A stretch of DNA of 64,000 bases from Candidatus Woesearchaeota archaeon (GCA_026394965.1 JAPLZQ010000103.1:13028-77027); one strand, 5' to 3'. Counted from the stretch's first letter, positions 18,177 through 50,203 are shown. Numbers and translations: made by a program. Notes: a model not told the origin generated them from the letters alone.

Positions 18177-18296
18177 ATCATAAAAATCCGCTGAGAGCGT
18201 TTGATCGGACGCTCTCTTAATCGCGGATTTTTAGGATACAAAAAGGCGCTGTATCTCGCAACTAAAGTAATGAGTTTTAGCGCCTTTTTTGTATAA
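18177..18296. repeat. intergenic nested-palindrome element, copy A (full)
   Basis: ATCATAAAAATCCGCTGAGAGCG...CGCTCTC...GCGGATTTTTAGGATACAAAAAGGCGCT...AGCGCCTTTTTTGT. Outer IR AAAAATCCGC/GCGGATTTTT (18183-18192 / 18223-18232), inner IR GAGAGCG/CGCTCTC, and a second hairpin CAAAAAGGCGCT/AGCGCCTTTTTTG. The element recurs at 26307, 35110 and 50165. Confidence 0.5.
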
Positions 18297-18327
18297 TCTC
18301 TGCTGAAAAATGCGAGGAAGGACAAGA

Positions 18328-18783
18328 ATGGCAAGAATGCATTCAAGAAGGAAAGGAAAAGCCGGAAGCAACAAGCCGAAGGAAGCAACCAAAAAAAGCT
18401 GGATAAGATACGCTCCCAAGGAAGTTGAAATGCTTGTTGCAAAGCTCGGAAAAGAAGGCAAGAGCGGCTCAGAGATAGGAATGATTTTAAGGGACACATA
18501 CGGAATCCCTGATGTAAAGGCTCTCACAGGAGAGACAATCTCAAAGATACTCGGAGACAAGAAGCTCCTCCCAAAGCTCCCTGAAGACCTTATTGCGCTC
18601 CTCAGAAGGATAGTCCTGATAAGGAAGCACATTGAGAAAAATGCAAAAGACCAGAGCGCAAAGAGAGGGCTGATACTCACTGAGTCAAAAATCAGAAGGC
18701 TTGTCAAATACTACAAGATAACAGGAAAGGTTCCTGTTGAATGGAAGTATGAGCCTGAAAAGATAAGGCTTTACATAGAGTAA
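18328..18783 (+). CDS. rps15: 30S ribosomal protein S15 (S13e)
   Basis: MARMHSRRKGKAGSNKP is the canonical archaeal S15 N-terminus. The ORF track begins 6 codons upstream at 18310. The C-terminal S15 fold follows (LIALLRRIVLIRKHIEKNAKD). Confidence 0.85.
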   Translation: MARMHSRRKGKAGSNKPKEATKKSWIRYAPKEVEMLVAKLGKEGKSGSEIGMILRDTYGIPDVKALTGETISKILGDKKLLPKLPEDLIALLRRIVLIRKHIEKNAKDQSAKRGLILTESKIRRLVKYYKITGKVPVEWKYEPEKIRLYIE

Positions 18784-18961
18784 GCGCCTTAAATTATTTT
18801 ATTATTTTTTATAATATTTTTCATTATTTTATTATTTTTAATCTGATTATCTGAATTATATTCTTTTTAACTTATTTTGCAGATACAATATATTTAATAA
18901 GCGGCTTCCTTAATTTCAGATTCTGCTTTACTGCGAATCTGTGCGGTTTTAATTTTAAGAG

Positions 18962-20434
18962 GTGGATAGGAAATTGGGCGATGTTGAAGAGTGCAGGGCA
19001 AAGGACTCTCTTGAAGCATTCATGAAGAATGTAAAGATTGCTGCTGATGAATTTCTGGCGCTTGACAAGGGGGAAACAATAAGGCTTGTGTCCCACCTTG
19101 ACTGCGACGGAATAAGCGCTGCATCAATAATGATAAGGATGCTGAACCGGCTCAACCGCAGATACGCCCTTTCCATAATTCCCCAGCTGGATGAAAAGGC
19201 AATATCCGAGCTTTCCAGGGAAAACTACAAAACCTTCTTCTTTACAGACATAGGCTCGGGGCAGATTTTCAGGATAAGAAAGTTCATGAAAGAGAAAAAA
19301 GTATTCATACTTGACCACCACGACATTGAAAGAAATTCTGAAGAATCTGAAAAATCAGACGGAATAGTTCATTTAAACCCCCACCTTTCGGGAATAGACG
19401 GCGATTCGGAAATATCAGGAGCAGGCGTTGTATTCCTTTTCGCAACTGAGATTGACAAGAAAAATGAGGACATGGCGCACATTGCGCTTATAGGCGCTAT
19501 CGGGGACATACAGGACAGGAACGGATTCTCAGGCATAAACTTATCCATCATAAAAACCGCTGAAAAAAACGGCAGGATTAAAGTGGAAAAGGGATTAAGG
19601 CTCTTCGGAGCCCAGACAAAGCCCATCCACAAGCTCCTTGAGCAGAGCACAGACTTCTTCATTCCCGGAATTACAGGCTCTGAAAGCAGCTCAATACAAT
19701 TCCTGAAAAGCCTTGGGATAAATCCCAGGAACAGCGAAGGGAGCTGGAAAAAACTCCCAAATCTTTCAAGTGAAGAAATGAAAAAGCTTGTTACAGGAAT
19801 AATCCTTATGCGCCTTGAAGAGAAAAATCCAGAGGACATCCTTGGACAGGTCTACACAATCCTGGGAGAGGAAGAGGAATCGCCCCTGAGAGATGCAAAG
19901 GAATTCTCAACCCTTCTCAATGCCTGCGGAAGGATGGGAAAGGCATCATTTGGTATAGGCGCATGCCTTGGGGATTCGCGCGCAAAACAGCAGGCGCTCT
20001 CAACGCTTGTTGACTACAAAAAGGAGATAATGAAATCCCTAAAGTGGTATGAGGAGAACAGAGAATCAAAGGCAGTTGTGTCAGGCGACGGCTTCATGAT
20101 AATAAATGCCTCGGACAAAGTGATTCCAACAGTTATTGGAACAATGGCTTCAATCATCTCAAAGTCAGGAATGATACCTGAGGGAACAATAATTGTGTCA
20201 ATGGCTCAGGCAGAAAGCGGAAAGACAAAGGTGTCTGGAAGGGTTGCAGGGAGAAAGCAGTCAGAGCATGACATGAGCGCTGTTATGAGAAAGATAACAT
20301 CCATTGCAGGCGGTGAAGCAGGCGGGCACCGGAATGCTTCAGGCGCAGTGATACAAACAGAAAATGAGGAAAAATTCATAGCAGCAGCCCAGAGCGTCCT
20401 CTCAAACATCTGCAAGGAAGAAAAGGTATTCTAA
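18962..20434 (+). CDS. DHH-family phosphoesterase, archaeal RecJ/GAN (Cdc45-like) type
   Basis: DHH motifs I-III: HLDCDGISAAS, ILDHHD, and a GGH-like GGHRNASG in the DHHA1 region. 490 aa. Confidence 0.65.
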   Translation: MDRKLGDVEECRAKDSLEAFMKNVKIAADEFLALDKGETIRLVSHLDCDGISAASIMIRMLNRLNRRYALSIIPQLDEKAISELSRENYKTFFFTDIGSGQIFRIRKFMKEKKVFILDHHDIERNSEESEKSDGIVHLNPHLSGIDGDSEISGAGVVFLFATEIDKKNEDMAHIALIGAIGDIQDRNGFSGINLSIIKTAEKNGRIKVEKGLRLFGAQTKPIHKLLEQSTDFFIPGITGSESSSIQFLKSLGINPRNSEGSWKKLPNLSSEEMKKLVTGIILMRLEEKNPEDILGQVYTILGEEEESPLRDAKEFSTLLNACGRMGKASFGIGACLGDSRAKQQALSTLVDYKKEIMKSLKWYEENRESKAVVSGDGFMIINASDKVIPTVIGTMASIISKSGMIPEGTIIVSMAQAESGKTKVSGRVAGRKQSEHDMSAVMRKITSIAGGEAGGHRNASGAVIQTENEEKFIAAAQSVLSNICKEEKVF

Positions 20435-20777
20435 AAAAAGGCATTCTGAATTATTGGAAAAATCAGCCCGAAAATATTTCATGCTTTTAATTTTTAGAAA
20501 TTGATTCTGTAGTCCTGCCGCTGCTGCTATTTTTTAAAAAAAAGAAAAAAAAGAAAAAATAAAAAAAAAGTTCTCCATTGCCTCACGGCAAGGAGACAAA
20601 CGTTTTTGCCTTCATTTAGGTTTGTGGGGGTGGGAAAATGAAGGCAGAAAGTCAACACCCGAAGGTGAGCGTGAATAAGTGACTTTTTGCGATCCCTCTC
20701 AATCATGAATTTGTGAGCGTGAAAATGCTATAAGGCTCCGGAAAAGCCCGGAGCAAAAAACATTTTACTGATTTGCC

Positions 20778-21914
20778 TTACTGAAGGATTTCAATCCCCA
20801 GCTCGTCGCTGACATGGTTTGCAACAGCCCTGTTCGCAGCTGTCATGCTTCTCTTGTACTCGTCTTTTCCGAGGAGCCATGGAGATTTTACGCCTGTTAT
20901 TATTGTCATCACAACAAGCTTGCCCTTCATGTCCTCCTGAATCCTTGCTCCCCAGATGACATTTGCATCTGTGTCCATGGATTCTGTCACAAGTTCGCCT
21001 ACCCTGCTGACTTCTTCAAGAGTCATGTCTGGGCCTCCTGTCACATGGATTAAGGCTCCTGTTGCTCCCTTGTAGTTGATGTCAAGAAGCGGATTTGAGA
21101 GCGCTCCGTTAACTGCCTCTTCAACCCTGTTGTTGGTATCAGATGAGCCGACTCCGATTGCTGCGACTCCGCCGTTGCTCATGATTGCCTTTACATCTGC
21201 GTAATCCAGGTTTACAAGGCTTGGAACCGCAATTGTCTCGACAATTCCCTTAATCATTGTTGCAATGAGCTCGTTTGCTACGGCAAATGCCTGCTGGATT
21301 GGAAGCCCGCCTGCAATCTGGACAAGCCTGTTGTTGTCTATAACGACAACTGTGTCAGAAACCTGCCTTAACTGCTGGAGCCCGAATTCTGCCTTGTCAA
21401 CTCTCACTCTTTCAATCTTGAAGGGCATTGTTACTGTTCCTATGACAATTGAGTTTATGTCCTTTGCAATCTTTGCAATGACTGGAGCTGCTCCTGTTCC
21501 TATTCCTCCTCCCATTCCTGCGCACACAAAAACCATGTCCGCATCCTTGAGAGCCTCTTTCAGCTCCTGCATGTTCTCCTTGGCTGCCTCAGCTCCCTTT
21601 TCCGGGAATCCTCCGCATCCGAGCCCTCTTGTCACATCCCTACCGATGATGAATTTGCGATCAGCTTCAGTTATGTCAAGGTGCTGCTTGTCTGTGTTAC
21701 AGGCTAGAATCTCAGCTCCGCGTATTCCCTTCTGGTAGAGCCATGAAACCATATTGTTTCCTGCGCCACCAACGCCTATAACCTTAATGTTGGCCTGCCC
21801 TTCAAGTCCCTCAACTTTCCTGTCCGAATGTTCCAATGCGTTCTGTATTATATAGTCCATTTTTTCAACCCCCTTTTGTCTGTTTTTGCTATTTGTTTGT
21901 AAAAGCCCACACAT
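20778..21914 (-). CDS. ftsZ: cell division GTPase FtsZ (paralog 2)
   Basis: IKVIGVGGAGNNMVSWL, CAGMGGGIGTGAAPV and NLDYADVKAIM. 378 aa, diverged from paralog 1 (3891-4976). Confidence 0.9.
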   Translation of the reverse strand: MCGLLQTNSKNRQKGVEKMDYIIQNALEHSDRKVEGLEGQANIKVIGVGGAGNNMVSWLYQKGIRGAEILACNTDKQHLDITEADRKFIIGRDVTRGLGCGGFPEKGAEAAKENMQELKEALKDADMVFVCAGMGGGIGTGAAPVIAKIAKDINSIVIGTVTMPFKIERVRVDKAEFGLQQLRQVSDTVVVIDNNRLVQIAGGLPIQQAFAVANELIATMIKGIVETIAVPSLVNLDYADVKAIMSNGGVAAIGVGSSDTNNRVEEAVNGALSNPLLDINYKGATGALIHVTGGPDMTLEEVSRVGELVTESMDTDANVIWGARIQEDMKGKLVVMTIITGVKSPWLLGKDEYKRSMTAANRAVANHVSDELGIEILQ

Positions 21915-25420: not shown

Positions 25421-26224
25421 TCAACCCCTTCCACAACCTTTGCGCCTTGTCCCAGAATACCTTCTCCCTGCAAGGATAAGAATGCTTTTTCCGGGGTTAA
25501 ACGGGTTCTTCGCCTTGACAATTATCCCGATCTCGTCATTTGAGTATGATTTGCCTGAAAGGGTTGAATAAACGCTCCACACATCCTTTTTCTCAAATCT
25601 CACAGGAAGCTTTGGATTTACCTCCTTCACAATCCTGTTTGTCACAGGACCTCCTATCAGTATAAGATTCTCCTTAAGGTCCTCATCCTTTACTTCAGTA
25701 TCGAGCTTTACAGTAAATGAGGGCACATAATTGAGAAAGGTTCCAAGGAAAAGCGCAAAGTCAACTGCATAATATCCGTCCCTTGAGCGCGCCTTGTCAG
25801 GGCCGTGGGGGTCAGGGCTTCCCACAATGAAGAAAGCATCCAGCTGCCCATCCTTTATGAAGGGCTCAAAAAAAGGGCTTTCTCCCCCAAGGTGAAGCAT
25901 GTTCGGGCTGTTCTCAAAATCCCGGAACTTGACTACAAAAGAAGGCTCCTCAAGAGCATAGTATTTTGCAAGAGCGCCCTGCTTGCTTTCGCTTTTCACA
26001 ACTTTCACAATGCCTGCCTTTTCAAGCTTTCTGACGTGGTAATACACCTTCTGCTCATTCACCTTCAGCGCTTTGGAAATCTCAATGACATACATCTCTT
26101 TTGCTGAGAGAAGATTCAGGATTTTTACAGCAAGCTCAGATGAAAGATGCCTGGAATCCCTTGCGCTTATCTCCTTTGCAGGGAGGGAAAGAATCTCATT
26201 CTTGTTTTTCTCAACTATGAACAT
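25421..26224 (-). CDS. winged-helix DNA-binding domain protein fused to an uncharacterised C-terminal domain
   Basis: N-terminal wHTH (EMYVIEISKALKVNEQKVYYHVRKLEKAGIVKVV). The C-terminal about 170 aa has no match recognisable to me. The likely true ATG is at 26222-26224. The ORF track start at 26311 lies inside repeat element copy B. Confidence 0.45.
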   Translation of the reverse strand: MFIVEKNKNEILSLPAKEISARDSRHLSSELAVKILNLLSAKEMYVIEISKALKVNEQKVYYHVRKLEKAGIVKVVKSESKQGALAKYYALEEPSFVVKFRDFENSPNMLHLGGESPFFEPFIKDGQLDAFFIVGSPDPHGPDKARSRDGYYAVDFALFLGTFLNYVPSFTVKLDTEVKDEDLKENLILIGGPVTNRIVKEVNPKLPVRFEKKDVWSVYSTLSGKSYSNDEIGIIVKAKNPFNPGKSILILAGRRYSGTRRKGCGRG

Positions 26225-26306
26225 TAATGCGCCTCTCTTTGCTCTTATTAAACAAACACTATTGATAAGAAGAGCTATTATAAAAAATTTTTTATTTCTG
26301 CTAAAA

Positions 26307-26570
26307 ATCATAAAAATCCGCTGAGAGCGTTCGGACGCTCTCTGATTCGCGGATTTTTAGGATGCCAAAAACGGCGCTTTATCTCTAAACTAAAGTACCA
26401 AAAATTCGCTAAGCGAATTTTGGAATCATAAAAATCTGCAATGGCAAATTTTTAGGATGCAAAAAGTGGCTTTGCCGCTTTTTTGCACATGAAAATCAAA
26501 GATTTTCAGTTCAAGAAATCATTTGATTTCTTTGTATTGAGTTTTAGCGCCGTTTTTTAGCATAAATTGC
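26307..26570. repeat. intergenic nested-palindrome element, copy B (expanded, carrying a nested degenerate second copy)
   Basis: Same ATCATAAAAATCCGCTGAGAGCG...CGCTCTC...GCGGATTTTTAGGATGC as copy A at 26307-26365. The second hairpin arms (CCAAAAACGGCGCT at about 26365 and AGCGCCGTTTTTTAG at about 26545) are split by about 160 bp. That insert contains AATCATAAAAATCTGCAATGGCAAATTTTTAGGATGCAAAAAGTGGC...GCCGCTTTTTTGC, a degenerate inner copy, plus a small AAAATTCGCT/AGCGAATTTT hairpin. Confidence 0.45.
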
Positions 26571-26611: not shown

Positions 26612-27460
26612 TCAGAAATCCTTTGTCCGCATCACTTTTATCCCGCGCGCTTTTGAGATTCCCTCTGCAATCGCATCAACCTTTTCCTTGTACTGCCCCA
26701 TGCCCTTCCAGTCCAGGATTATTGACTCGGGCTTTGGAACAGTCCTTTCAATTGCCTGAAGAACTATTTCCTCATCAATATTATCAAGCATGTATTTTGG
26801 GCATACATGCCCGACTGCAATCCCGGATTCTATTATGATTTTCTTGAAATTTGAAAGGGTGTGAAGCCCGCCTATCCCGACAGCAGAAGGGCACTCCGGA
26901 ACCTCATTTGAAAGAAGCTCAAAAAGGGCTTCCCCTATGATTTTGCCTGCTTTCCTGTCTTTCCAGCGCTCAAGCTCAGAGCCGATTTCAATGAACATGC
27001 ACGGCTTTTCAAGGAAAGGGCCGTGGTGGGTGCACTCCTGGACAACATCATACCCCGAGCCATTTCCCCTTATTTCAAGAATCTGCATCGCCCTCTTAAG
27101 AAAGGATGCCGGGCAGACGCAAAGCTCCCTATCCCTGCCGCCAAGCCCTGCTGAACCCCAGTTTCCTGGAGAGTGCACGCTTAAACTGGGAATTCCAGAT
27201 TCGCTTCGATGCTTGCTCATGAAGATGAAAAAATCCGCTGAGATAAGCCGGTCAAGGTTCTCGTAATGCACAAGCTCTGAGTCAGTTGTATAAATCCTTG
27301 CCTTGACTTCATTAGAGCCCGCATGAAAAGTTCTCTCAAAAACAGGGTATGAATCAAAAACCCCGCATTTCATAAATTCAGCTGTTTCAAGGAAAGAATC
27401 CTTTATGTTCATTCCTGCATGGTCCTCTGTTGAGCAGACTAATGCGATATTGTGAAACAT
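26612..27460 (-). CDS. dtdA: D-aminoacyl-tRNA deacylase, archaeal DtdA type
   Basis: Motifs HSPGNWG, ECTHHGP, GIGGLHT and DWKGMG match my recollection of the archaeal Dtd (DUF516) family, for example the Pyrococcus HVTGNWG/ATHHGP/GIGGGHY/DWKG. 282 aa. Confidence 0.6.
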   Translation of the reverse strand: MFHNIALVCSTEDHAGMNIKDSFLETAEFMKCGVFDSYPVFERTFHAGSNEVKARIYTTDSELVHYENLDRLISADFFIFMSKHRSESGIPSLSVHSPGNWGSAGLGGRDRELCVCPASFLKRAMQILEIRGNGSGYDVVQECTHHGPFLEKPCMFIEIGSELERWKDRKAGKIIGEALFELLSNEVPECPSAVGIGGLHTLSNFKKIIIESGIAVGHVCPKYMLDNIDEEIVLQAIERTVPKPESIILDWKGMGQYKEKVDAIAEGISKARGIKVMRTKDF

Positions 27461-34840: not shown

Positions 34841-35325
34841 TTTGACGCACTGCCTTCCTGCCAAGAAATTCCAAGAGTCATAATTGAAGCAGCAGTGCGT
34901 GGAGAGATTTCATACTGCGGGTAAGTGTTCAGCCAGTCATGCTCTCTGTTTTCATTTCCCCATCTCATTTTTATCACTCGAAAAATTCTTTTAGATTTTT
35001 TCAGATACCCTAACTCCCTCGCTCTGATTTTGCAGGCATAGCCAGATTAAATAGAGAAGGATATTTTAATTTATCGGGAAAAAATAAAAAACGGCTTGGA
35101 AAAGAGAGAATTATCATAAAAATCCGCATAAACTTCAAAGTCCAAAGAATTACTGCATGGACTCGTTTTGAAAATATCCTGCCAATTTAAAAGCTATGAG
35201 GGATTAGTTACCATTATTTGATAGTGAAAAAACCGAAATATTTATAAACCCTTTCTGAATTGTTATCACTGCCAGTCAATAATAAACCGGCAATAATCTC
35301 ATTTAAAAGGATTGGGGGTAATAAC

Positions 35326-36837: not shown

Positions 36838-36866
36838 GCGAATCACTTGGCTTGAGAATAAAAAAA

Positions 36867-38171: not shown

Positions 38172-38186
38172 AATTCGGTGAAAAAA

Positions 38187-39566: not shown

Positions 39567-39581
39567 AATTCGGTGAAAAAA

Positions 39582-41453
39582 ATGGCAGAAGACAAAAAGC
39601 AGGGCGCGGAAGACAAAAAGCTTGAGGAAATCATAAAGAAATGCTTTGAGGAGACAAAGGACCGGTATCTCAGACCTCCGATAAGCGGACCTCTGATAGT
39701 TGACTCTGAAATTGAAATGAACGGCTTGGGAACAGCATTTCTGAACTTCCTTGACTTATCCATTGGAATAAATGCCCCTTTTCTTAAAAAAATGGCAGGA
39801 TATGCCAATGGTGATATTGAAAAGATGGCAAAGGGAATTTTCACCCACGAAATCGGGCATTATATGTTTTTTCCCCAGAATGTAAGCCTTTCACTTTACC
39901 TCTCATATGAGGCAGAGGAGAATTTCAAGGAAAACAGCGCAATAATATACGCCCTTTTCGCTGACTATGTCAACAATTCTCTCATCTATTACCAGCAGGT
40001 TGAGGCAGAGAGTTTGAAAGGGCTACTTGCAAGCTCATATCTCGACAAAAAAAACAGGGCAACAAACAGCGCAATGGCCTTAAGCTACGGAAAAAGGATG
40101 AAAGAGGAATTCTCCGTTGACCTAAGCGGCTTTGAAGAGGAAACCATGAAAAAAATAATCAAGGCAGCAGACGAGATTGATTCAGTAACAGTTAGCATGA
40201 GCAGGAACTACAACCTGCAGTATTCCCAACTCCGAAGATTCGGAGAGGCAATACTTCCCCTTCTTAATATTGACAGGCAAAAAATGAAGGAGAATCAGAA
40301 GAATAACTGCGACAAAAATTGCCAAAACAACGGGGGGCAGGGTGAAAACCCTTGCAATTGCCCTTCTGGCGGGGGCTCAAGAATAATAACCAAGGAAGAT
40401 TTTGACAAGCTTCCCGCTGAAGATAAGCAGAAGATAAAGCAGGCAATAAGGGAAATGATAAAGCACATGGACAAGAAGAAATATGAAAAAATAAAGGAGC
40501 ATTTCCTTGGAAAAGAGAGCGCTAAGAAAGACAGGGCTCCTGGAATCGGAACAGGCATAGAAAATGTGGAATCTGCTGAAGATAAAACAACTGAGTACTA
40601 CAAGGAGCTTGCAGCAGAATACGGGATATTCATAAGGCCCAAGAAAACAAGAACCTTATCCTCAACAAAGCAGGTTTTCGGAAAAGAGGACTTCAAGATG
40701 GACAGCCCGCCGATAGGGATAGACACAAGATACTCCGGCGGAAAAATACTTCCGGGGCTTACAAAGAAAATCAGGATAGAGTCAATACCTTACCTAAAAA
40801 ACTCACAGTCGCTCCCTTCTCTCATAATATACAAGGACGCATCAGGAAGCATGCCTAATCCCCAGCAAGAGACATGCTATGCAACCCTTGCCGGAACAAT
40901 ATTCATAATGAGCTATTTTCGGAGCGGATGCAATGTGGGAGTTTCCCTGTTTGACTCGGAAATGACAGACATATTCAGAAGCGAGGATGAGGATGAGCTG
41001 ATAAAGATGATTTGCAGCTACAAGGGCGGCGGAACATCAATTGATTTGGACAGGTTAAAAAAAGACATAGCAGAATCAAAATCAGAGATTCCAATAGACC
41101 TGAAGAAAATAAATGAGGAAGAAATCAGGAAAAACCCGCTTTTCAGGAAATACCTGAACAAAAACGGAAGGATAAGCCTTCAGGAGCTCACAAGCCAGAG
41201 CTATGTTGACCTGATGATAATAACAGACGGCGGAATCATGAATGTTGATGAGCTGATTGACTTCATGAAAAACAACGAGAAATACCGCCCTACAATAATA
41301 CACACCGGCACATTCCAGCTAGATATACCGGGATATGACCAGCAGCACACCTGCTCTTATGGGGGAATAACCGTGTTCAAGGCGGACTCAAAAGAGGACC
41401 TTGTGAGAATATCGCAGGACATAATTGAAAAGAACCTTATTTCAGGCAACTAA
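39582..41453 (+). CDS. von Willebrand factor A (vWA) domain protein with complete MIDAS, fused to an N-terminal HExxH zincin-like region and a Cys-rich linker
   Basis: C-terminal vWA with MIDAS residues all present: DASGS in IIYKDASGSM, the Thr in KGGGTS, and the Asp in LMIITDGG. The N-terminal region contains FTHEIGHYMFF (HExxH). The linker is CDKNCQNNGGQGENPCNCPSGGG. The start ATG at 39582 shares the upstream 22 bp AAATTCGGTGAAAAAAATGGCA with paralog 2. Confidence 0.65.
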   Translation: MAEDKKQGAEDKKLEEIIKKCFEETKDRYLRPPISGPLIVDSEIEMNGLGTAFLNFLDLSIGINAPFLKKMAGYANGDIEKMAKGIFTHEIGHYMFFPQNVSLSLYLSYEAEENFKENSAIIYALFADYVNNSLIYYQQVEAESLKGLLASSYLDKKNRATNSAMALSYGKRMKEEFSVDLSGFEEETMKKIIKAADEIDSVTVSMSRNYNLQYSQLRRFGEAILPLLNIDRQKMKENQKNNCDKNCQNNGGQGENPCNCPSGGGSRIITKEDFDKLPAEDKQKIKQAIREMIKHMDKKKYEKIKEHFLGKESAKKDRAPGIGTGIENVESAEDKTTEYYKELAAEYGIFIRPKKTRTLSSTKQVFGKEDFKMDSPPIGIDTRYSGGKILPGLTKKIRIESIPYLKNSQSLPSLIIYKDASGSMPNPQQETCYATLAGTIFIMSYFRSGCNVGVSLFDSEMTDIFRSEDEDELIKMICSYKGGGTSIDLDRLKKDIAESKSEIPIDLKKINEEEIRKNPLFRKYLNKNGRISLQELTSQSYVDLMIITDGGIMNVDELIDFMKNNEKYRPTIIHTGTFQLDIPGYDQQHTCSYGGITVFKADSKEDLVRISQDIIEKNLISGN

Positions 41454-41482
41454 AAGCAATAGGGGTGATGGGGAAGTGAAAA

Positions 41483-42394
41483 ATGCCAATAGAAGAACTA
41501 TCAAAAGTGGAGAAGAGGGAAACAATAGAGCACAAAAGCACCGCAGAGGAATTCATAAAAAAATGCGGGGAAGCAACAGAAGAGATAAGCGCATTATGCG
41601 CCCAGAAGAAAAACCGCGGTTTTCAAATTGACACAATACGCGACGTATACACCCCGATGGACCGGCTTCTTGAAAAAAGCCTTTCAGAGCTCGACTATTC
41701 GGCAGCGGACATTGAAACATTCATAAGTTCAGAGTACCATCGAGAAATTGCAGACGCAAAAAGATTGCCGCTGGGAGTCTGCACCAGAATAACACTGGAA
41801 ACCCTCACAAAAAAAAACAGGGCAAAAGGAGAAAAAACAGTAATAAAAATTGACGGCAGCTGGAATGAATTTAACTACTTATTTTTCGGCATACAAAACT
41901 TTGACGAGATATACCTCTCAAACATGAAAGGAGAGAGAATACTCTCAGTATCTGATGGAGGCAAGTGCGGAACAGCTGTCCTAAACAATATTGAAGGAAG
42001 CGGTTTGTGCTCATACCTTGATTACAACATTGGTTCACTTGATAATCTAATCTGCAATATGTCTAAGACGTTTTATTTTAAGGATATGCACCGGTCTAAA
42101 CCAAGAAATATTGGCTTTGCCCTGTTAAGCGATTGCATGGTAAATTCTGATGATCAATTCAACTGCTGCTATTTCAGAGAAATTTTGGGAGAAAAAGAAC
42201 CAATTAAGGAAGACAAGGAAAAATATGAGATTATCCTTGAGCTTGCAGCAAAGATGACTGACTCACCAATAGATGAAATAGAAAACCTTAGCCGGCAGAT
42301 AATACAAATCTATCGCTCAGATAAAGAGGATGAGAATATCATAGAGAAAACCAGCAAAACAGGATATGCCCATTTCAAATGGCTTAAGAGATGA
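41483..42394 (+). CDS. paralog 3 of tandem GIEKREKKE-motif family (short, divergent)
   Basis: MPIEELSKVEKRETIEHKS..., core KTVIKIDGSWNEFNYLFFGIQNFDEIYLSNMKGERILSVSDGGKCGTAVLNNIEGSG. The repeat region is truncated. 303 aa. Confidence 0.55.
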   Translation: MPIEELSKVEKRETIEHKSTAEEFIKKCGEATEEISALCAQKKNRGFQIDTIRDVYTPMDRLLEKSLSELDYSAADIETFISSEYHREIADAKRLPLGVCTRITLETLTKKNRAKGEKTVIKIDGSWNEFNYLFFGIQNFDEIYLSNMKGERILSVSDGGKCGTAVLNNIEGSGLCSYLDYNIGSLDNLICNMSKTFYFKDMHRSKPRNIGFALLSDCMVNSDDQFNCCYFREILGEKEPIKEDKEKYEIILELAAKMTDSPIDEIENLSRQIIQIYRSDKEDENIIEKTSKTGYAHFKWLKR

Positions 42395-42429
42395 AAAAAA
42401 TCAAAAAGAAGTGATAAGGAAAACAAAAA

Positions 42430-43323
42430 ATGCCGCTAAACGAGCTTACCGGAATAGAGAAAAGGAATAAAAAGGAAAAGGGAGAGGACAGGACTGAATA
42501 TTTCACAAGAATCAGCAACGGAATAGTCAAAAGCATGCTCAAAGAGTTCGTGAGAATGAGAAAAAGAATCCTTGTCAAGTTCATTGAGGAAACAGATGAG
42601 GAAAGAAAGGAATTTGTCAAAAACGCTATTGGAAGCTTTGAATACAATGAGAGGGATTTGGAAGGGTTGATACAGGCAAAAATTGAAGATGAGAACAAAT
42701 CGCCAATGCTCGGTTACTATACAGGAATTCTTCTGGAAATGCTTACTGAAAGGAACAGAAAAAAGGGAATTGAGACAACTGTCAGGATTGACGGATGCGG
42801 AAGGGACTTTCCCTACCTTTTCATGGGAGCAAGAAACTTTGACAATGTCTACATCTCCAACATAACCGGAGATAAAATACTTTCAAATTCGCTTGATGGA
42901 GGAAGGGGAAAGACAGCGGTTATAAGCGGGCTTAAGGGAGATTCTGCAGCATACTGGATGGCGCGCAAGGGAATGCTTGACCTGCTTGTGATAAATGATT
43001 CTATCGGCGAATTCACTGCAGCAGGAATCGCTGAAGGAGGCTGCATAAAAAGGGTGGTTCTAAGGAACATTACAAGCGACACTGGTTTAACACTTGAATT
43101 CGCGAAAATGAACAACGGCAAAATCCCAGAACTGATTTATGATGCAAAACCGGGAATGTTATCCGGCATAGGCGATTATATCACTATGAAATTCGGGCGC
43201 GTTCCAAGAAGGAGGGGCTCCCTTGAATGCGCAGCCAAGATGAGCGGCGCATCAGTTTATGACATAGAGAAATACGCAAATGAGATAAACAGCCTGTTCA
43301 GAGAAAAAAATGCCACTAAATGA
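42430..43323 (+). CDS. paralog 4 of tandem GIEKREKKE-motif family
   Basis: MPLNELTGIEKRNKKEKGE..., core ETTVRIDGCGRDFPYLFMGARNFDNVYISNITGDKILSNSLDGGRGKTAVISGLKGDSAAYW... 297 aa. Confidence 0.55.
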   Translation: MPLNELTGIEKRNKKEKGEDRTEYFTRISNGIVKSMLKEFVRMRKRILVKFIEETDEERKEFVKNAIGSFEYNERDLEGLIQAKIEDENKSPMLGYYTGILLEMLTERNRKKGIETTVRIDGCGRDFPYLFMGARNFDNVYISNITGDKILSNSLDGGRGKTAVISGLKGDSAAYWMARKGMLDLLVINDSIGEFTAAGIAEGGCIKRVVLRNITSDTGLTLEFAKMNNGKIPELIYDAKPGMLSGIGDYITMKFGRVPRRRGSLECAAKMSGASVYDIEKYANEINSLFREKNATK

Positions 43324-44428
43324 GCTTATTGGAATAGAGAAACGGGAGAAAAATGATAACCCAGAGAGCCAACTTGAAAAGCTGCTTGAAATCGGGGAGG
43401 ATGTTGTAAAAAAATTCGGGAAAAGCGAGCTTGCGGACAGAATTACATATGACAACCGGTTTGAGCCGATTTCAAAATTAAGGGAGAAGATAGAAATCTA
43501 CTGCATGAGAAGCATTGAAAACATTGAATACACAGAAAAGGACATAGAGTCATTTGTGAACGGCAGATTGGGCGTCTCACGGGATACTGGTGAGCAGGTA
43601 ACCATAGGAACTTATTCTGGAATCATTTTGGACATATTAACCATGAAAAACCGGGAAAAGGCAAAAGGAACAAGAATAGCGATTGATGGGAAAGGCGAAG
43701 AGTTTGACTATCTGTTTTCCTGTGCGAAAAACTTTGATGAGGTTTATGTCTCAAACATAAAAGGAGACTACATCTGCACATATGCGGGGGCAGAAGGATA
43801 TGGAAAGATGATAGTCCTGAATGATATTAAAGGCGACTACATTGGAAAATCAATTGCTGCATTGCGCGGAAATGTTGAGATTGCAGTTATAAATCGCGCA
43901 GAAGGATTAGGAACCGGGCATGAAATCGCCTCATACCACGGGAATGCTGGATTAATTATTGTAAACAATGCGATTGGAAGGGAAACATTGATGGACGTGG
44001 CTGTTGAAGGCGGAAGCATAGGGCTCGCTTTGATAAACAAGGCAATTGGCGATTATACTGCCTGGTGCGCAGCTTATGATTCAGGGAGCATTGGGGACCT
44101 CGTAATAACAAACTCAAAAACCAAATCAGAAAAAGGATTTGATATTGATGTAACCAGGATAAAAAACATCCTCCTGAAAATGAATAAATTCAACTTCTCA
44201 AACAAAACTGGCAAAGGAATGCTTATTGGAAACAATGAAGATATGGAAAAGAGTTTCAATGAAGATTACCGAATAAATGAATTATCAGATGCTGTTAAAA
44301 AAATCGTAAAGAAAAAAGAAATTGAAGGGATTATAAAACAGGCAGGAAAGATACAGTCAATATATGAAACCATAAAAGAGAGAGTTGAAGGAGACCTGGC
44401 ATGGATAAAGGAGCATTCGGAGATTTAG
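43310..44428 (+). CDS. paralog 5 of tandem GIEKREKKE-motif family
   Basis: MPLNELIGIEKREKNDNPE. Its first 36 nt are nearly identical to the paralog 4 start. Core TRIAIDGKGEEFDYLFSCAKNFDEVYVSNIKGDYICTYAGAEGYGKMIVLNDIKGDYIGKSIAALRGNVEIAVINRAEGLGTGHEIASYHGNAGLIIVNNAIGRETLMDVAVEGGSIGLALINKAIGDYTAW. 372 aa. Overlaps the paralog 4 stop. Confidence 0.6.
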   Translation: MPLNELIGIEKREKNDNPESQLEKLLEIGEDVVKKFGKSELADRITYDNRFEPISKLREKIEIYCMRSIENIEYTEKDIESFVNGRLGVSRDTGEQVTIGTYSGIILDILTMKNREKAKGTRIAIDGKGEEFDYLFSCAKNFDEVYVSNIKGDYICTYAGAEGYGKMIVLNDIKGDYIGKSIAALRGNVEIAVINRAEGLGTGHEIASYHGNAGLIIVNNAIGRETLMDVAVEGGSIGLALINKAIGDYTAWCAAYDSGSIGDLVITNSKTKSEKGFDIDVTRIKNILLKMNKFNFSNKTGKGMLIGNNEDMEKSFNEDYRINELSDAVKKIVKKKEIEGIIKQAGKIQSIYETIKERVEGDLAWIKEHSEI

Positions 44429-45321
44429 ACGCAATAGAGAAGCGGGAGAAGAAGGAATACCCGCACACACTTGAAGCGCTGATAGAGGCAGAAGAGAAAA
44501 TAAAACCAAAAATCCTGGGGAGATACCCGTCCTATCCAAGAGAGACAGACAAGTATCTTGATGTGCTTTCCCTTGCTGGAGAAGCCCTCAAAAAAACTGA
44601 TTACACGGAAAAAGACATAGAAAACTTTGTGCTTTCCCAATCAGGAAGCGGGGAAAATGAAAGCGAGGAAATGTTTATTGGGATTTACGCGGGAGCAATT
44701 GTGGAAAACCTTGGAAGGAGAAAAGGCAGGAAAAAAACAATAATTGCAATTGACGGAAAGGGAAGGAAATTCAACTACCTCTTCCACTGCATAAGGAATT
44801 TCGGGGAGATATACCTCTCAAACTTCAACGGCACATACATATGCCACAATGCAGCAAGCTACGGAAAGGGCGAAATCCTTGTGCTCAACAGAGTTAAAGG
44901 AAATGGAAACGGCGGATATGCCGGCTCAAAGGGAAAAATAGGGCTTGCAATACTTAATGAAACAGGCGCTGTAAATGAATTCACAATTCTCAGGCAGATG
45001 ATAAATTTCGGGTACAATGAAAAATTCAACATAGAACGCTTTGTGATAAAGGAAAAAAATGTCAAGCTTAGCAAAATGGCGCAGGTTTTCAAAAGGGAAA
45101 TTGAAGTTCCTGAACTGCTTGAGGTTTACAAACTGTCAGAAGAAACAATAAACGGAAACAAACCAGGCAGTTTATACGAAACTACAAGAGTCCAGAAAAT
45201 CAAAATCAAGAGTAAGGAAAAAAAAGAGATAAACAGTTTAACAGAAGAGATGGAAAGCGCAGAAATCGGAGAAATGGCAGATATTGCAAAACGCATAAGG
45301 GAGCTGTGCTATGAACAATAG
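44401..45321 (+). CDS. paralog 6 of tandem GIEKREKKE-motif family
   Basis: MDKGAFGDLDAIEKREKKEYPHTLEALIEAEE..., core KKTIIAIDGKGRKFNYLFHCIRNFGEIYLSNFNGTYICHNAASYGKGEILVLNRVKGNGNGGYAGSKGKIGLAILNETG. 306 aa. Confidence 0.55.
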   Translation: MDKGAFGDLDAIEKREKKEYPHTLEALIEAEEKIKPKILGRYPSYPRETDKYLDVLSLAGEALKKTDYTEKDIENFVLSQSGSGENESEEMFIGIYAGAIVENLGRRKGRKKTIIAIDGKGRKFNYLFHCIRNFGEIYLSNFNGTYICHNAASYGKGEILVLNRVKGNGNGGYAGSKGKIGLAILNETGAVNEFTILRQMINFGYNEKFNIERFVIKEKNVKLSKMAQVFKREIEVPELLEVYKLSEETINGNKPGSLYETTRVQKIKIKSKEKKEINSLTEEMESAEIGEMADIAKRIRELCYEQ

Positions 45322-46417
45322 AAAAACGCCTTTTGATGAAATGTCAGGAATAGAGAAAAGGGAGAAGAAGGAATATTCGCACACACTTGAAGCCCTAATT
45401 GAAGAATCTGGACATTCTGTAAAGAGGATGCTTTCAATGATGATAAAAGCAATGGCTTGGAATGACCTTAGCGGAATGTACATTCACGCATTTCATGAAG
45501 CATCAGAAGAACTTGAAGGGGTTGAATACAACGAAAGAGACCTGTCTGACTTCATAACAGCAAACAGTGGAATTCCAATGGAAAGCGATGAAGAATGCGC
45601 TCTTGGAGTATACTCTGGGATACTGCTTGACCTGCTTACAAGAAGGAGAAGAAAAGAGGGGAAGAAGTCAGTTGTAAAGATTGAAGGCGCAGGAAAGGAA
45701 TTCCATTATCTCTTTTATTATGCAAAAAACTTTGATGAGGTTTACATATCAAACATTGAAGGCGACAAAATCTGCTCAAGGATGGGAAGCCACAGCGGAA
45801 GCGGAAATTTCATAGTGCTTAACAATGTGAATGGAAATTTCATCGCAGACACAGTAGGATACAGCAGCGGAAAAGTGAATATGGTTGTGATAAACAATTC
45901 TCGCGGAATAATGGCTGGAAACAGCATTGCTGAACGCGGAAGCGCTGGATTAATAGTCCTGAACAGCATAAATGCTGCAGGAGATATAGGATGCGCAATT
46001 GCAAAAGAGGGGGAAGCCGGAACAGTCATATTAAACAATCTTAACGGAGACAGGATAGGAGATTACTGCGGAAGCGCTAAAGGAAAAATCGGGAATATTG
46101 CATACCTGTCAATAAAAGCAAAAGAATCAGTCGGCGAATTTGTGCCTGATTATGAGAGCGAAATCGGGAAGATGATAATACTGGACAGCCATGTTAAAAA
46201 TCGCAATGTTGGGGCGGAATTCAGCGGATTCGGCAGATCTGAAATAATAACTGAACAGGAAAATGAAAAAGCAGAAAGGGCGCTGGAAGAAACAGGGATT
46301 AAAGAAATAATCCTGCTTGCAGATGAAATGGGAAAATTTGGCGCTGAAAGATATGAGGAATACGCTCATAAGATTTATTGCTCATACAAAATGGCAGGTG
46401 GAAAATATGCCTTTTGA
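45311..46417 (+). CDS. paralog 7 of tandem GIEKREKKE-motif family
   Basis: ...FDEMSGIEKREKKEYSHTLEALIEESG, where the N-terminus is near-identical to paralog 6 at the nucleotide level. Core KKSVVKIEGAGKEFHYLFYYAKNFDEVYISNIEGDKICSRMGSHSGSGNFIVLNNVNGNFIADTVGYSSGKVNMVVINNSRGIMAGNSIAERGSAGLIVLNSINAAGDIGCAIAKEGEAGTVILNNLNGDRIGDYCGSAKGKIGNIAYL. 368 aa. Confidence 0.6.
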   Translation: MNNRKTPFDEMSGIEKREKKEYSHTLEALIEESGHSVKRMLSMMIKAMAWNDLSGMYIHAFHEASEELEGVEYNERDLSDFITANSGIPMESDEECALGVYSGILLDLLTRRRRKEGKKSVVKIEGAGKEFHYLFYYAKNFDEVYISNIEGDKICSRMGSHSGSGNFIVLNNVNGNFIADTVGYSSGKVNMVVINNSRGIMAGNSIAERGSAGLIVLNSINAAGDIGCAIAKEGEAGTVILNNLNGDRIGDYCGSAKGKIGNIAYLSIKAKESVGEFVPDYESEIGKMIILDSHVKNRNVGAEFSGFGRSEIITEQENEKAERALEETGIKEIILLADEMGKFGAERYEEYAHKIYCSYKMAGGKYAF

Positions 46418-47480
46418 TGAGCTTTCGGGAATAGAGCTGAGAGAAAAAGCAGGGCAGGATAAAAATGCTCTTGAAAAAATCCTTGAAATCTGCGATTATC
46501 TTTGCAGAAACACTTCAGAGGTATACCGCTACCTTTTCGACACCATGAACTCTGATTCAGAATTCTATTCACATGTGCGCTCCTTCGCTCTCTCAAAAAC
46601 CAGGAATATTGATTTCAATGAAAAAGACATTTGTGACTTCATTATTGCAAAATCCTATGAAAAGCAGGAAAAGGAAGGGGTAATAGGGCTTTTTTCAGGA
46701 GTTCTCCTTGACATACTTACAGAAAGAAACAGGAAGCAAAAAAAGAAGACGATAATCAAGATTGACGGCAAAGGCGCAAAATTCAGCTACCTGTTCTACG
46801 GCGCAAGAAACTTTGACGAGATATACCTTTCAAACTTCAACGGCAGATACATCTGCGCAAAGATAGGGAGCGAAGGGAGAGGCGGGATAGCTGCGCTTTC
46901 CAGAATTGACGGAAGCTACACAGGAGAATCGGCAGGGGCATTCTCTGGAGGAATAGATGCGCTGATTGTAAACTCGGCAACTGACAATGAGCTCTGCTCA
47001 AAAATTGGTTTTTCCGGGGGAAAAGCAGGATTAGTGCTGATAAGCAATTCAAAAGCATTTCTTGCAGGAAGCTCAATTGCAAGAGATGGCTCTGCAGGCA
47101 TGATTGTCCTTAACCAGATAATTTCAGAGCACATTGGCGATTACATAGGAGAAGGAGGGCATGTTAAAAAGCTTGCAATGAACAGCCTGTCGGGCTCCTA
47201 TGTTGGCAGAAACATCGGGACAAATAATGGAGAGGTAAGCGAGATAGCGCTCAGGGATATAAAAGCGAGCTATGTTTTTTCATCAGCAAATTTTGAAAGG
47301 ACAAGGAGCCTCATCAGGTACAATGATAATGAAGCTGAAATCTATTTCAGGAAAAACCGCATTGACAGAATCATCTCGCTTTCAGAGGATATTGATTTGG
47401 CAGATGATATTGATGAACTGGAAAGGATATCAAAAAAGATTTATCGGGAATACAGAAAAGGGATGAAAAATGGGGCTTGA
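46407..47480 (+). CDS. paralog 8 of tandem GIEKREKKE-motif family
   Basis: MPFDELSGIELREKAGQDK..., core KKTIIKIDGKGAKFSYLFYGARNFDEIYLSNFNGRYICAKIGSEGRGGIAALSRIDGSYTGESAGAFSGGIDALIVNSATDNELCSKIGFSGGKAGLVLISNSKAFLAGSSIARDGSAGMIVLNQIISEHIGDYIGEGGHVKKLAMNSLSGSYVGRNIG. The ORF track begins upstream at 46317. Confidence 0.6.
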   Translation: MPFDELSGIELREKAGQDKNALEKILEICDYLCRNTSEVYRYLFDTMNSDSEFYSHVRSFALSKTRNIDFNEKDICDFIIAKSYEKQEKEGVIGLFSGVLLDILTERNRKQKKKTIIKIDGKGAKFSYLFYGARNFDEIYLSNFNGRYICAKIGSEGRGGIAALSRIDGSYTGESAGAFSGGIDALIVNSATDNELCSKIGFSGGKAGLVLISNSKAFLAGSSIARDGSAGMIVLNQIISEHIGDYIGEGGHVKKLAMNSLSGSYVGRNIGTNNGEVSEIALRDIKASYVFSSANFERTRSLIRYNDNEAEIYFRKNRIDRIISLSEDIDLADDIDELERISKKIYREYRKGMKNGA

Positions 47481-48549
47481 AGAGCTTTCGGAAATAGAAA
47501 AGAGAAAACCCAGCATCGCAAATAAAAGCGGGCTTGATGCGGTAATATCTGGAATGGAAGAATGCGTGAGCAGGGTAAAGACAATGATGATTCTTCCTTT
47601 TCCACTCTATTCCATACAAAAGGTCTATGAGATAGCAGAGAAAAGGCTGGAATCAGCAGATTATTCTGAAGATGAGATAATTGACTGCATAATTGCAGGC
47701 AGGAAATATGAAGATTATGGGAACAAGGCAATAGCAGGCGCATACACAGGAGCTCTCCTCAGCATCCTTACTGAAAGAAACAGTAAAAAAGGCAGGAAAA
47801 CAATAATGTATGTTGATGAAAAATGCAGCGGGTTTGACTATCTGTTCTACAATGCAAGAAGCTTTGATGAGGTTTACCTGAATAATTTCAACGGCGATTA
47901 TGCATGCTATGGAATGGAAAACGGAAGAAGGGCAGTTGTTAACAATTCGCATGGAGACACAATGTTCTGGGACATTGCATCTGGAAAAATTGAAAAAAGA
48001 GACAATGCGCATCCAAATGCGGAAATGATACTTATTAACAATTACCAGCCAAATGTTTATTTCAATACTGAGATAGGCTCTTTTGCAGGAGCATACGGGG
48101 GCTCAATAGGGCTTTTCCTTGCAAACAGCTGCTGCAGCTGGCAGACAGGAAGGGACATTGCCTACAGCGAGGGCTTTGCAGACACGGTAATACTCAACAA
48201 GACAAAAGGGGATGAAATCGGGAATGGAATTGCATGCAACAGAGGAAGGGTGAATAATCTTCTCATAATCGGAGGAAGCCAGAATTTTGTAGGAAATGAC
48301 ATTGCTCAGGTAGGCGGCTCTGTCGGAAACCTTCTTGTGCAGGGAAAGAAAGGAAAGGTGATGTGCGGGGCTAACTTTTACCGGGTTGAAAGGCAGATAA
48401 GCAGGAGCAGGAACAAGAGAAGGTTCATGGAAAAAAGGGGAATACCAAAGATTCTTGCATTAGCCGAGCAGATGAAAACAGCTGGAAAAGATGAGATTAT
48501 CATGCTCTCTGAGCAAATCTGGCAGGAATACACAGAAAACAGAAAATGA
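47470..48549 (+). CDS. paralog 9 of tandem GIEKREKKE-motif family (most divergent)
   Basis: MGLEELSEIEKRKPSIANKS..., core RKTIMYVDEKCSGFDYLFYNARSFDEVYLNNFNGDYACYGMENGRRAVVNNSHGDT..., then Gly-rich repeats and C-terminal GIPKILALAEQMKTAGKDEIIMLSEQIWQEY. 359 aa. Confidence 0.55.
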   Translation: MGLEELSEIEKRKPSIANKSGLDAVISGMEECVSRVKTMMILPFPLYSIQKVYEIAEKRLESADYSEDEIIDCIIAGRKYEDYGNKAIAGAYTGALLSILTERNSKKGRKTIMYVDEKCSGFDYLFYNARSFDEVYLNNFNGDYACYGMENGRRAVVNNSHGDTMFWDIASGKIEKRDNAHPNAEMILINNYQPNVYFNTEIGSFAGAYGGSIGLFLANSCCSWQTGRDIAYSEGFADTVILNKTKGDEIGNGIACNRGRVNNLLIIGGSQNFVGNDIAQVGGSVGNLLVQGKKGKVMCGANFYRVERQISRSRNKRRFMEKRGIPKILALAEQMKTAGKDEIIMLSEQIWQEYTENRK

Positions 48550-49226: not shown

Positions 49227-49247
49227 GAACAGGAAAGAATAGCAAGC

Positions 49248-49255: not shown

Positions 49256-49280
49256 CAGCTTTTTAATTCTCTCCTGCATC

Positions 49281-49467: not shown

Positions 49468-49544
49468 TTTTTCTTAATTTATCATATTAACTTTTAGAAA
49501 TAATAAGATTTAATAATTAAGAAAAAAAAATCAGAGAGAATTTC

Positions 49545-49916: not shown

Positions 49917-50035
49917 AAAAAAACACCCCAGAATATAGAAAATATACGAGGTTCATATATAAACTTTTATCTTTTTAAGCATATACAATCCCCTGTGAAA
50001 TATGGGAATTTCAGGGGGAAATCAATTCAGAAATG

Positions 50036-50043
50036 TTTATAAA
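50036..50043 (+). promoter_or_regulatory. TATA-like box (TTTATAAA) about 28-35 bp upstream of tRNA-Cys
   Basis: Position and sequence. Confidence 0.25.
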
Positions 50044-50070
50044 CCACCTAGGTTTTATGATTTTTAAGGC

Positions 50071-50143
50071 GCGGGGGTAGCCAAGTGGCTAAGGCAATCG
50101 CCTGCAGAGCGATCATTCGGGGGTTCGAGTCCCTCCCCTCGCT
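50071..50143 (+). tRNA. tRNA-Cys (anticodon GCA)
   Basis: GCGGGGGUAGCCAAGUGGCUAAGGCAAUCGCCUGCAGAGCGAUCAUUCGGGGGUUCGAGUCCCUCCCCUCGCU. Acceptor GCGGGGG/CCCUCGC, anticodon stem AUCGC/GCGAU with loop CUGCAGA giving GCA, and T-arm GGGGGUUCGAGUCCCUC. Confidence 0.8.
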
Positions 50144-50164
50144 TTTTATTGTTTATGAATTAAA

Positions 50165-50203
50165 TTATCATAAAAATCCGCGGAGAGTTTCCTGCTCCGC
50201 AAT
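50165..50203. repeat. partial copy of the nested-palindrome intergenic element (5' half with variant inner hairpin)
   Basis: TTATCATAAAAATCCGCGGAGAG...GCTCCGC immediately downstream of tRNA-Cys. It shares the ATCATAAAAATCCGC head with copies at 18177, 26307 and 35110. Confidence 0.35.

Follow-up and report, generated by a model that had tools for sequence, protein, structure and literature searches.

REP, BIME and REPIN sequences (REP, repetitive extragenic palindromic), which are bacterial and are mobilized by RAYT enzymes (Y1 HUH transposases), are short, GC-clamped, imperfect palindromes. The palindrome-associated transposable elements (PATEs) of the IS200/IS605 type in Halobacteria and cyanobacteria are non-autonomous and have subterminal hairpins at both ends. 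The Correia elements (NEMIS or CREE) of Neisseria have 26-bp terminal inverted repeats (TIRs). Small mobile palindromes are also found in the AT-rich, compact genomes of Rickettsia and of the mitochondria of yeasts and Allomyces. DPANN archaea have tiny, streamlined genomes that are thought to be poor in mobile elements, and hardly any study has addressed their transcription signals. Here, a recurrent double-hairpin element is described that occurs in a 64,000-nt stretch of DNA from Candidatus Woesearchaeota archaeon (GCA_026394965.1, JAPLZQ010000103.1:13028-77027), hereafter the window, and in other DPANN contigs. The favored reading, to which a probability of about 0.7 is given, is that these sequences are short (approximately 65-330 bp), non-autonomous, dispersed palindromic elements of Woesearchaeota/Nanoarchaeia-type DPANN, which are now or were recently mobile and are similar to MITEs (miniature inverted-repeat transposable elements), REP sequences and PATEs. 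The family is hitherto undescribed and is akin in kind to the REP/REPIN, PATE, Correia and mitochondrial elements; exact-sequence and keyword searches of the literature returned no description of it.

Copies of the Element in the Window

The original prediction for this DNA, made from the sequence alone, was of a recurrent, nested palindrome with at least two full and two partial copies, and this repetition is real. The head, ATCATAAAAATCCGC, matches exactly on the + strand at 18177, 26307, 35113, and 50167 and with one mismatch at 26425 (+), and its inverted partner, ATCCTAAAAATCCGC, lies on the minus strand at 18223-18237 and 26349-26363. These seven matches compare with 0.34 expected, and none of 100 shuffles reaches seven. 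The minimum free energy (MFE) folds of the two full copies, A and B, have z-scores of -6.6 and -8.6 against shuffles, and a strict scan of the whole window for A4-stem-T4 hairpins returned only the second hairpins of A and B (shuffles, 0). A covariance model of the first hairpin unit, R1, detects in the window only A, B, the copy nested in B and one weak candidate. The window holds two full copies, a minimal copy within B, a 15-nt remnant and a truncated 5′ fragment, as follows:

18177-18292 (+): copy A, full element of two hairpin units, its interior reduced (R1 54.6 bits, E 2.6e-12)
18177-18237 (+): unit 1 of copy A, ATCAT-A5-TCCGC...GCGGA-T5-AGGAT
18238-18292 (+): unit 2 of copy A, ACAAAAAGGCGCT...AGCGCCTTTTTTGT
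18293-18296 (+): ATAA adjoining the 3′ end of copy A, probably target-derived, as judged from the empty and filled MazG sites and the flank logo (see below)
26307-26561 (+): copy B, full element with nested insertions in its unit 2 (R1 60.2 bits), followed by ATAA (26562-26565)
26307-26363 (+): unit 1 of copy B
26364-26397 and 26537-26561 (+): 5′ half and 3′ half of unit 2 of copy B
26398-26424 (+): first part of a hairpin array in copy B, CCAAAAATTCGC-TAA-GCGAATTTTGG, in the CTAAAG loop region of unit 2
26425-26488 (+): minimal copy nested in B, approximately 64 nt, ATCATAAAAATCTGC-AAT-GGCAAATTTTTAGGATGC-AAAAAGTGGC-TTT-GCCGCTTTTTTGCAC, then ATGA (R1 31.3 bits)
26489-26536 (+): second part of the hairpin array, ATGAAAATC-AAA-GATTTTCAG and AAGAAATCA-TTT-GATTTCTT
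35113-35127 (+): remnant, the 15-nt head followed directly by ATAA (35128-35131)
50167-50210 (+): truncated 5′ fragment of unit 1, from the head to the apical loop, ATCATAAAAATCCGCGGAGAGTTTCCTGCTCCGCAATAAAGCAC, 23 nt 3′ of tRNA-Cys
17606-17660 (+): weak candidate for a decayed copy, GGATAAAAATCCGGCATTTGATTC..., across the stop codon of a PAC2-family gene (R1 match at 17583-17666, 19 bits, E 0.014)

The two full copies, the remnant and the truncated fragment had been located in the original prediction; their ends have been refined, with A now ending at 18292 and B at 26561, the partial heads placed at 35113-35127 and 50167-50210, and the trailing ATAA ascribed to the target. Reading and alignment bear out the parts said to be shared by A and B, namely the inner repeat GAGAGCG/CGCTCTC, the outer repeat AAAAATCCGC/GCGGATTTTT, the AGGAT(A/G)C that follows, and the second hairpin, (C)AAAAA(C)GGCGCT...AGCGCC(G)TTTTTT. 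In copy B this hairpin is indeed split, by an insert of approximately 140 nt that holds the degenerate minimal copy; GTA is repeated at the two borders of the whole insert. Over 66 nt, copy B shares 93-98% identity with copies in five other contigs (L126, L135, L161, L156, and L180), and the fragment at 50167-50210 is 83-91% identical to the unit-1 5′ half in L135 and L161. The remnant at 35113-35127 is a deletion derivative or a footprint.

The copies of the window are all intergenic, as had been stated, in a survey of its open reading frames (ORFs) and Pfam domains. Copy A lies between a small-RNA-like conserved motif 3′ of rpl44e and rps15 (ATG at 18328), and copy B lies between minus-strand genes on both sides, an HTH/S-layer-like gene (25421-26311) and a DTD2-like gene (26612-27460). 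The remnant is approximately 130 nt upstream of an AAA/MoxR-like gene, whose own TTTATAAA box is at approximately 35236.

Anatomy and Distribution of the Family

The double-hairpin element is in its larger form widely conserved, and the copies in the window are reduced variants of it, a point that goes beyond the original prediction. The consensus is ATCAT-A5-TCCGC-(variable interior)-GCGGA-T5-AGGATGCC-A5-(covarying stem)-T5-GYGC, followed by AT(A/G)A. A full element comprises two neighboring hairpin units in fixed order and orientation, with short and nearly invariant frames: unit 1 is ATCAT-AAAAATCCGC-(P2 stem - TAC - P3 hairpin with loop CTAAAG - GTTTGAC - P2′ - TTTGAnA)-GCGGATTTTT-AGGAT, and unit 2 is GCC-AAAAA-(stem...stem′)-TTTTT-G(T/C)GC. 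The interiors of the units covary and may be deleted to a few bases, often between short direct repeats, flipped, or enlarged by other small A-run/T-run hairpins. In the window, P3 is missing from A and B, and nearly all of the interior is missing from the nested copy; in the parts held in common, the window copies are 93-98% identical to copies on metagenomic contigs of 936 and 124 kb. Elements measure 65-331 nt and are non-coding, with stops in all frames. A coding reading of the head (..IIKIR and a stop) was rejected because neither the frame nor the upstream stops are conserved, and a promoter reading of the head because canonical TTTATAAA boxes are located elsewhere.

A metagenome scan with an 18-mer pattern, the unit-1 3′ arm, gave 71 stretches, of which approximately 60 are genuine further copies on other DPANN archaeal contigs. 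A scan of species genome contigs with the head 15-mer gave at least 120 matches, mostly due to chance; among the matches listed are contigs of archaea that have GCGGATTTTTAGGATGC, the partner of the head, 5-110 nt downstream of it. R1 has no match in 20 unrelated control loci and found extra copies in element-bearing loci, and no copies were found in the viral contig, plasmid, and phage collections searched. Proximity to tRNA genes is incidental: the fragment at 50167-50210 and copies in L018, L186, and L187 adjoin tRNAs, but most copies do not. Three element-bearing contigs (L002, L011, and L076) are labeled “uncultured Methanosarcinales archaeon”. The close homologs of the L076 protein tested are all named Woesearchaeota or Nanoarchaeota, and this protein is 53% identical to one on the 936-kb contig. 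The taxonomic label or binning of L076 is probably wrong, and since its protein is of the Woesearchaeota/Nanoarchaeota type, the family looks confined to this DPANN lineage.

The insert of copy B also holds a second repeat family, which had not been noticed previously and consists of small hairpins in chains, their 5′ arms rich in A and their 3′ arms rich in T (CCAAAAATTCGC.., CATGAAAATC.., AAGAAATCA..). The array occupies the same place in L146 as in B, and other, independent loci in L156 and L168. Its sites are:

Window, 26398-26424 and 26489-26536
L146, 7275-7400
L156, approximately 3200-3330
L168, approximately 3170-3290

Mobility and Target Site

Identical copies with unrelated flanks were found in one groundwater metagenome (seven copies) and in another sample (four copies). 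L146, from a related genome, is otherwise homologous to copy B and lacks the nested copy, showing the empty site TTGGAAC^ATGAAAATC (^ marks the point of insertion), so that the proposed insertion of the element into itself is borne out. L139 carries a copy in the spacer next to an ftsZ ortholog, and the orthologous spacer of the window is without the element; five related contigs (in the range L195-L200; S15 73-75% identical) keep the motif upstream of rps15, and the element is absent. In three contigs (L137, L192, and L193), a gene for a MazG-like nucleoside triphosphate pyrophosphohydrolase has the element within it. An intact homolog, L194, has the empty site CCAGAA^ATAATCAAG, and the filled form is CCTGAA-(ATCAT...TTTTTGTGC)-ATAATCAAG; the empty site reads GAA^ATAATC with an AT repeat of at most 2 bp, and the insert is ATCAT...GYGC, 126 or 157 nt. 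Of the MITE-like character that had been proposed, mobility is upheld by the unrelated flanks, L146 and the MazG empty site; of the classical MITE hallmarks, clear TIRs and a fixed duplication would be doubtful, and no parent insertion sequence was seen.

In a logo of the flanks of 53 sites, R-A-W precedes the element and AT(A 43/G 10)A-W-A-A-A follows it, which gives a target of the form RAW^AT(A/G)AWAAA with a repeat of at most 2 bp (AT). On the comparison of the empty and filled MazG sites, the ATAA that always stands 3′ of the element is derived from the target. The A-rich target therefore often leads to landings on TAA stops, lysine-rich 3′ gene ends, TATA-like boxes, and the loops of other copies, and hence to stops within TCATAA upstream and to nearby starts downstream. 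Where an ORF stands upstream of a copy, its stop codon is often the TAA of TCATAA, or the ORF is shortened by no more than a few terminal, lysine-rich codons, and an ATG lies 6-32 nt past the tail in eight of the 23 co-oriented neighbors. Copies are located at gene ends in all four neighbor orientations.

Imperfect palindromes of variable length that have conserved ends and stand directly after stop codons might instead be integron attC-like or other site-specific recombination sites marking gene cassettes. This explanation is extremely improbable, because RYYYAAC/GTTRRRY core sites are absent from the element sequences read, the neighbors are housekeeping genes in mixed orientations, and no integrase was found near the copies or in the ORFs of the window.

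The element inserts at A-rich sites, into other copies and, once, into a gene. The mover would be an enzyme that recognizes folded ends, either an HUH Y1/Y2 enzyme, of the kind that serves REP, PATE or Helitron-like elements, or else a recombinase with a 2-bp core. Subterminal hairpins combined with the lack of long TIRs and little or no duplication fit single-strand HUH transposition of the IS200/IS605-PATE, REP-RAYT or Helitron-like (A^T) kind, or such a recombinase.

A separate arrangement was seen in L185 (reverse strand, approximately 255-500), where, around an element copy, the 3′ end of a NOL1/NOP2/Sun-like gene (GGTTTCTTTGTCGCCAAA) recurs downstream, once inverted and once direct, the direct repeat ending in the apparent original C-terminus, GFFVAKVKKC and a stop. 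This arrangement suggests a fold-back or an inverted duplication tied to the insertion.

Covariation and Strand Use

Pairing holds in 96% of cells across 29 distinct unit-1 sequences, and compensatory double changes occur in 15 of the 32 pairs; none of 500 shuffles reaches the observed covariation, and slid partners score far lower. The outer helix is invariant, although in the 3′ arm this invariance is partly a matter of ascertainment, as that arm was the 18-mer search pattern; the 5′ arm and the independent head-scan matches likewise show it. Strong covariation in two helices, conservation of the apical loop CTAAAG and of the bulges TTTGAC, very stable folds, and orthologous copies that are better conserved than the coding DNA alongside would also be expected of structured small RNA genes or cis-acting RNA elements (e.g., stabilizers in 3′ untranslated regions), the hairpins of which are selected as RNA and are present as paralogous copies in each genome. 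Such a small structured RNA family, one of the identities first proposed, is nevertheless unlikely. The mismatch cells of unit 1 comprise 16 G-U and 17 A-C; since the two are equally frequent, neither strand is favored. The whole unit-1 interior is inverted within an unchanged frame in L130 (R1 80.7 bits on the strand opposite the frame), L048 has a minimal hairpin with an inverted loop, and the copies form a series of deletion variants in which the interior is cut to a few nucleotides in many cases, including those of the window. Furthermore, different copies have unrelated flanks, which extends to wherever an upstream promoter might lie, and no conserved one is seen; copies also run over stop codons, and a gene is broken by the element. 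At gathering thresholds, Rfam matched only tRNAs in the window, in agreement with the earlier statement that the element fits no known RNA family, and matched nothing in six element-bearing loci; at a relaxed threshold (E<=10), L060 and window positions 17900-20900 gave nothing meaningful. The equal numbers of G-U and A-C, together with an interior that can be inverted, deleted or expanded, point to a palindrome used as DNA or on both strands rather than a strand-specific RNA gene.

A Copy within a MazG-Like Gene

The protein encoded by the interrupted MazG-like gene has no Pfam or PDB match, and its identity is taken from the names of its homologs. When joined, the exons of the split gene encode 101 amino acids, which is the exact length of dozens of element-free homologs. 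Between element-bearing strains, dN/dS of the split gene is 0.058, 0.069, and 0.25, with dS of 0.23-0.84, and its 13 N-terminal codons show five synonymous vs. two non-synonymous changes. The resident element is 96-98% identical between strains, compared with 64-90% for its flanks. Judged by these substitution patterns, the split gene and the resident element are both under purifying selection. The copies in L137, L192, and L193 have private variants in common (CTGAAG and CACAATAACC), which argues for one ancestral insertion behind all three.

The 157-nt insert is not a multiple of three and all of its frames hold stops; the tail of the element contains a TTG, at which gene callers placed the starts of C-terminal fragments. 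A two-piece protein, a protein N-truncated from the tail TTG, or removal of the element would be possible outcomes. An archaeal bulge-helix-bulge (BHB) intron was considered and rejected: at the junctions in L137, L192, and L193, a scan for two 3-nt bulges separated by a 4-bp helix, together with MFE folding, gave only marginal matches with flanking helices of at most 2 bp.

A more general version holds that the element is intron-like or a tolerated intervening sequence, which is removed or bypassed at the RNA or translation level in the MazG-like gene and has spread since its insertion is not lethal to genes. The low dN/dS at dS of up to 0.84, the synonymous excess in the N-terminal codons, the conservation of the resident element and the uniform 101 residues of the closest element-free homologs speak for it. 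It is very unlikely all the same: apart from the lack of BHB motifs, the stops in all frames and the length of the 157-nt version, the other copies match no ribozyme or intron family of Rfam, a conserved lysine of the N-terminal exon has been swapped for three different residues, and the C-terminal fragment could start at the tail TTG. Known translational bypasses are far shorter than the gap made by the element at this locus.

Possible Effects on Transcription

In both units and on both strands, a GC-rich stem is directly followed by at least five T residues, so the architecture of the bidirectional terminator hairpins that had been proposed is present, while termination itself would be a prediction from that architecture. 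A copy would thus probably stop archaeal RNA polymerase from both sides by means of its GC-clamped hairpins and T5, whichever strand is transcribed. A consensus terminator scanner did not flag the hairpins of the element because its loop limit is 8 nt. The final T-run, together with the ATAA of the target, would also rebuild a TATA-like box 24-36 nt before many downstream starts. Copy A provides an example in TTTTTTGT^ATAATC, which is TATA-like and precedes the ATG of rps15 by 36 nt, and which may act as a promoter; relatives carry TGTATAAAT or ACATATAAAC in this position.

Could the elements have evolved in their hosts as bidirectional terminators or intergenic punctuation, and have spread by duplication and recombination without transposition? 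All units have the form A5-GC stem-loop-GC stem-T5 of a bidirectional intrinsic terminator, a terminator hairpin is the sole Rfam entry to which there is even a weak similarity, the copies stand at gene ends in the four neighbor orientations, and resident copies are under purifying selection. However, the insertion within a coding sequence, for which the empty site is clean, the nested insertion and the identical copies with unrelated flanks are difficult to reconcile with this origin, termination does not need nearly invariant frames of 15-23 nt, and the genome is otherwise without hairpin terminators, which makes it quite unlikely.

It is also tempting to speculate that hosts retain the mobile element under selection as a gene-punctuation cassette that provides a bidirectional terminator, a TATA-like box and a start context, that even copies within genes are tolerated, and that in the MazG-like gene it is removed or bypassed by a non-BHB route or gives rise to a two-piece or N-truncated gene from its 3′ edge; this extension is rather doubtful.

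In the leader region of rps15, 18095-18160 (+) holds a two-hairpin motif, TCGAGAGGCAGACCGG..CTTGTCTGCGCTGGAGAA..TTCTCC, with a TATA-like box at approximately 18078-18092. The motif is also present upstream of rps15 in L195-L199 and is a candidate small RNA or leader with no Rfam family.

Evaluation of the Favored Reading

Several observations weigh against regarding the family as non-autonomous mobile elements. The TIRs appear to amount to just an imperfect 8-mer, the only terminal inverted match being CATAAAAA vs. the reverse complement of TTTTTGTG. The target-site duplication, a point raised with the original prediction, would be at most the 2-bp AT repeat, as judged from one clean and one approximate empty/filled pair. 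No transposase, integrase or HUH gene is present among the approximately 50 Pfam-scanned ORFs of the window, which also lack TnpA (Y1) and TnpB domains, and no RAYT-like gene was seen in approximately 400 kb of element-bearing loci. No gene recurs within a few kilobases of the approximately 60 copies, where ORF clustering gave only spurious element-spanning ORFs, and no autonomous parent element was seen among the copies or in the window. The 96-98% conservation of orthologous copies, at nearby dS of 0.2-0.8, is unlike a purely selfish, decaying insertion. The consensus and strict hairpin scans showed hairpin terminators not to be otherwise enriched in this genome, and the ascertainment of the unit-1 3′ arm has to be borne in mind.

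Other Features of the Window

The window has a G+C content of 41.6% and carries archaeal ribosomal protein genes. Its S15 shows 100% identity to a protein (P0121) from a Candidatus Woesearchaeota archaeon metagenome-assembled genome, encoded on an 84-kb contig, although a search of contigs for a gene encoding this S15 gave no match. Pfam matches among its scanned ORFs are to housekeeping families (GINS, two FtsZ, Spt5, L11, S3Ae, L44e, S15, ArgRS, topoisomerase VI, Kae1, and others), and positions 146-2265 are syntenic with the Woesearchaeota contig L111 at 69-72% nucleotide identity. An intron-containing tRNA of 98 nt at 2316-2413 (-) was matched by Rfam and missed by ARAGORN; at the syntenic position after the GINS gene, L111 has an element copy, cut by the contig end, in place of this tRNA. 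The two FtsZ paralogs lie within 17 kb, at 3891-4976 (+) and 20778-21914 (-). A hairpin-rich region of approximately 170-200 nt, GCCTTCATTT..GGGGGTGG..AATGAAGGC and neighbors, is located 3′ of the latter at approximately 20560-20780 (-); it is kept 3′ of the ftsZ ortholog in L139, L196, and L199 and is a candidate structured RNA without an Rfam match. The AAA/MoxR-like gene (35260-36837) is followed at 36852-48549 (+) by approximately 10 tandem paralogous ORFs of approximately 300-460 aa (repeat families D1-D12), in which no Pfam domain was found among those tested.

Significance and Comparison with Known Systems

A conserved, multi-copy, self-nesting double-hairpin element would offer a new handle on genome rearrangement, on the limits of transcription units in uncultured archaea, and on an enzyme that would recognize folded DNA ends. 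The copy within a gene, amid purifying selection on both gene and element, would, if true, be a rare case of a tolerated or domesticated insertion in archaea, and interest would increase if selection in situ reflects a domesticated terminator/promoter cassette or intron-like behavior. The covariance model and the 18-23-nt frames provide a specific marker for Woesearchaeota-type contigs, which already suggests mis-binning of some public contigs of metagenome-assembled genomes labeled “Methanosarcinales”.

Among the described systems, Helitrons offer a resemblance only: the clean empty site is compatible with A^T insertion in AT without duplication, in which case the element begins with TC, and a hairpin stands a few nucleotides before the 3′ end. 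By contrast, the 3′ end is GTGCA instead of CTRR, the element is approximately 100 bp long, and no Rep/helicase gene was seen. Correia elements are closer in their size of approximately 100-160 bp, their many copies at gene borders and perhaps their 2-bp target repeat, and their outward promoters and their action as terminators or processing sites may have counterparts here. They differ in their long TIRs, their TA target and their integration host factor site, whereas the present element consists of nested double hairpins, takes AT at an AT(A/G)A target, and lies in an archaeal TATA-type context. Like the GC clusters and double-hairpin elements of mitochondria and the Rickettsia palindromic elements, it inserts in spacers, into its own kind and occasionally in genes without abolishing them; the sequences and hosts are unrelated, and the Rickettsia elements are translated in frame, whereas this one has stops in all frames.

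PATEs share with the element subterminal hairpins at both ends, the lack of long TIRs, little or no duplication and orientation-specific ends. The left flank of the element, however, is a weakly conserved RAWA instead of a fixed tetra- or pentanucleotide, the stronger signal, AT(A/G)A, is on the right, and the hairpins abut the ends directly. With the REP, BIME and REPIN sequences, the element has in common the GC-clamped imperfect palindrome with a conserved short 5′ motif by the stem, the many intergenic copies, often in doublets, and compensatory change in the stems, and REP sequences have effects on termination and mRNA ends. It differs from them in its archaeal (DPANN) host, in its 5′ motif, ATCAT rather than GTAG, and in its two differing units, which stand in constant order with A5/T5 collars round each stem.

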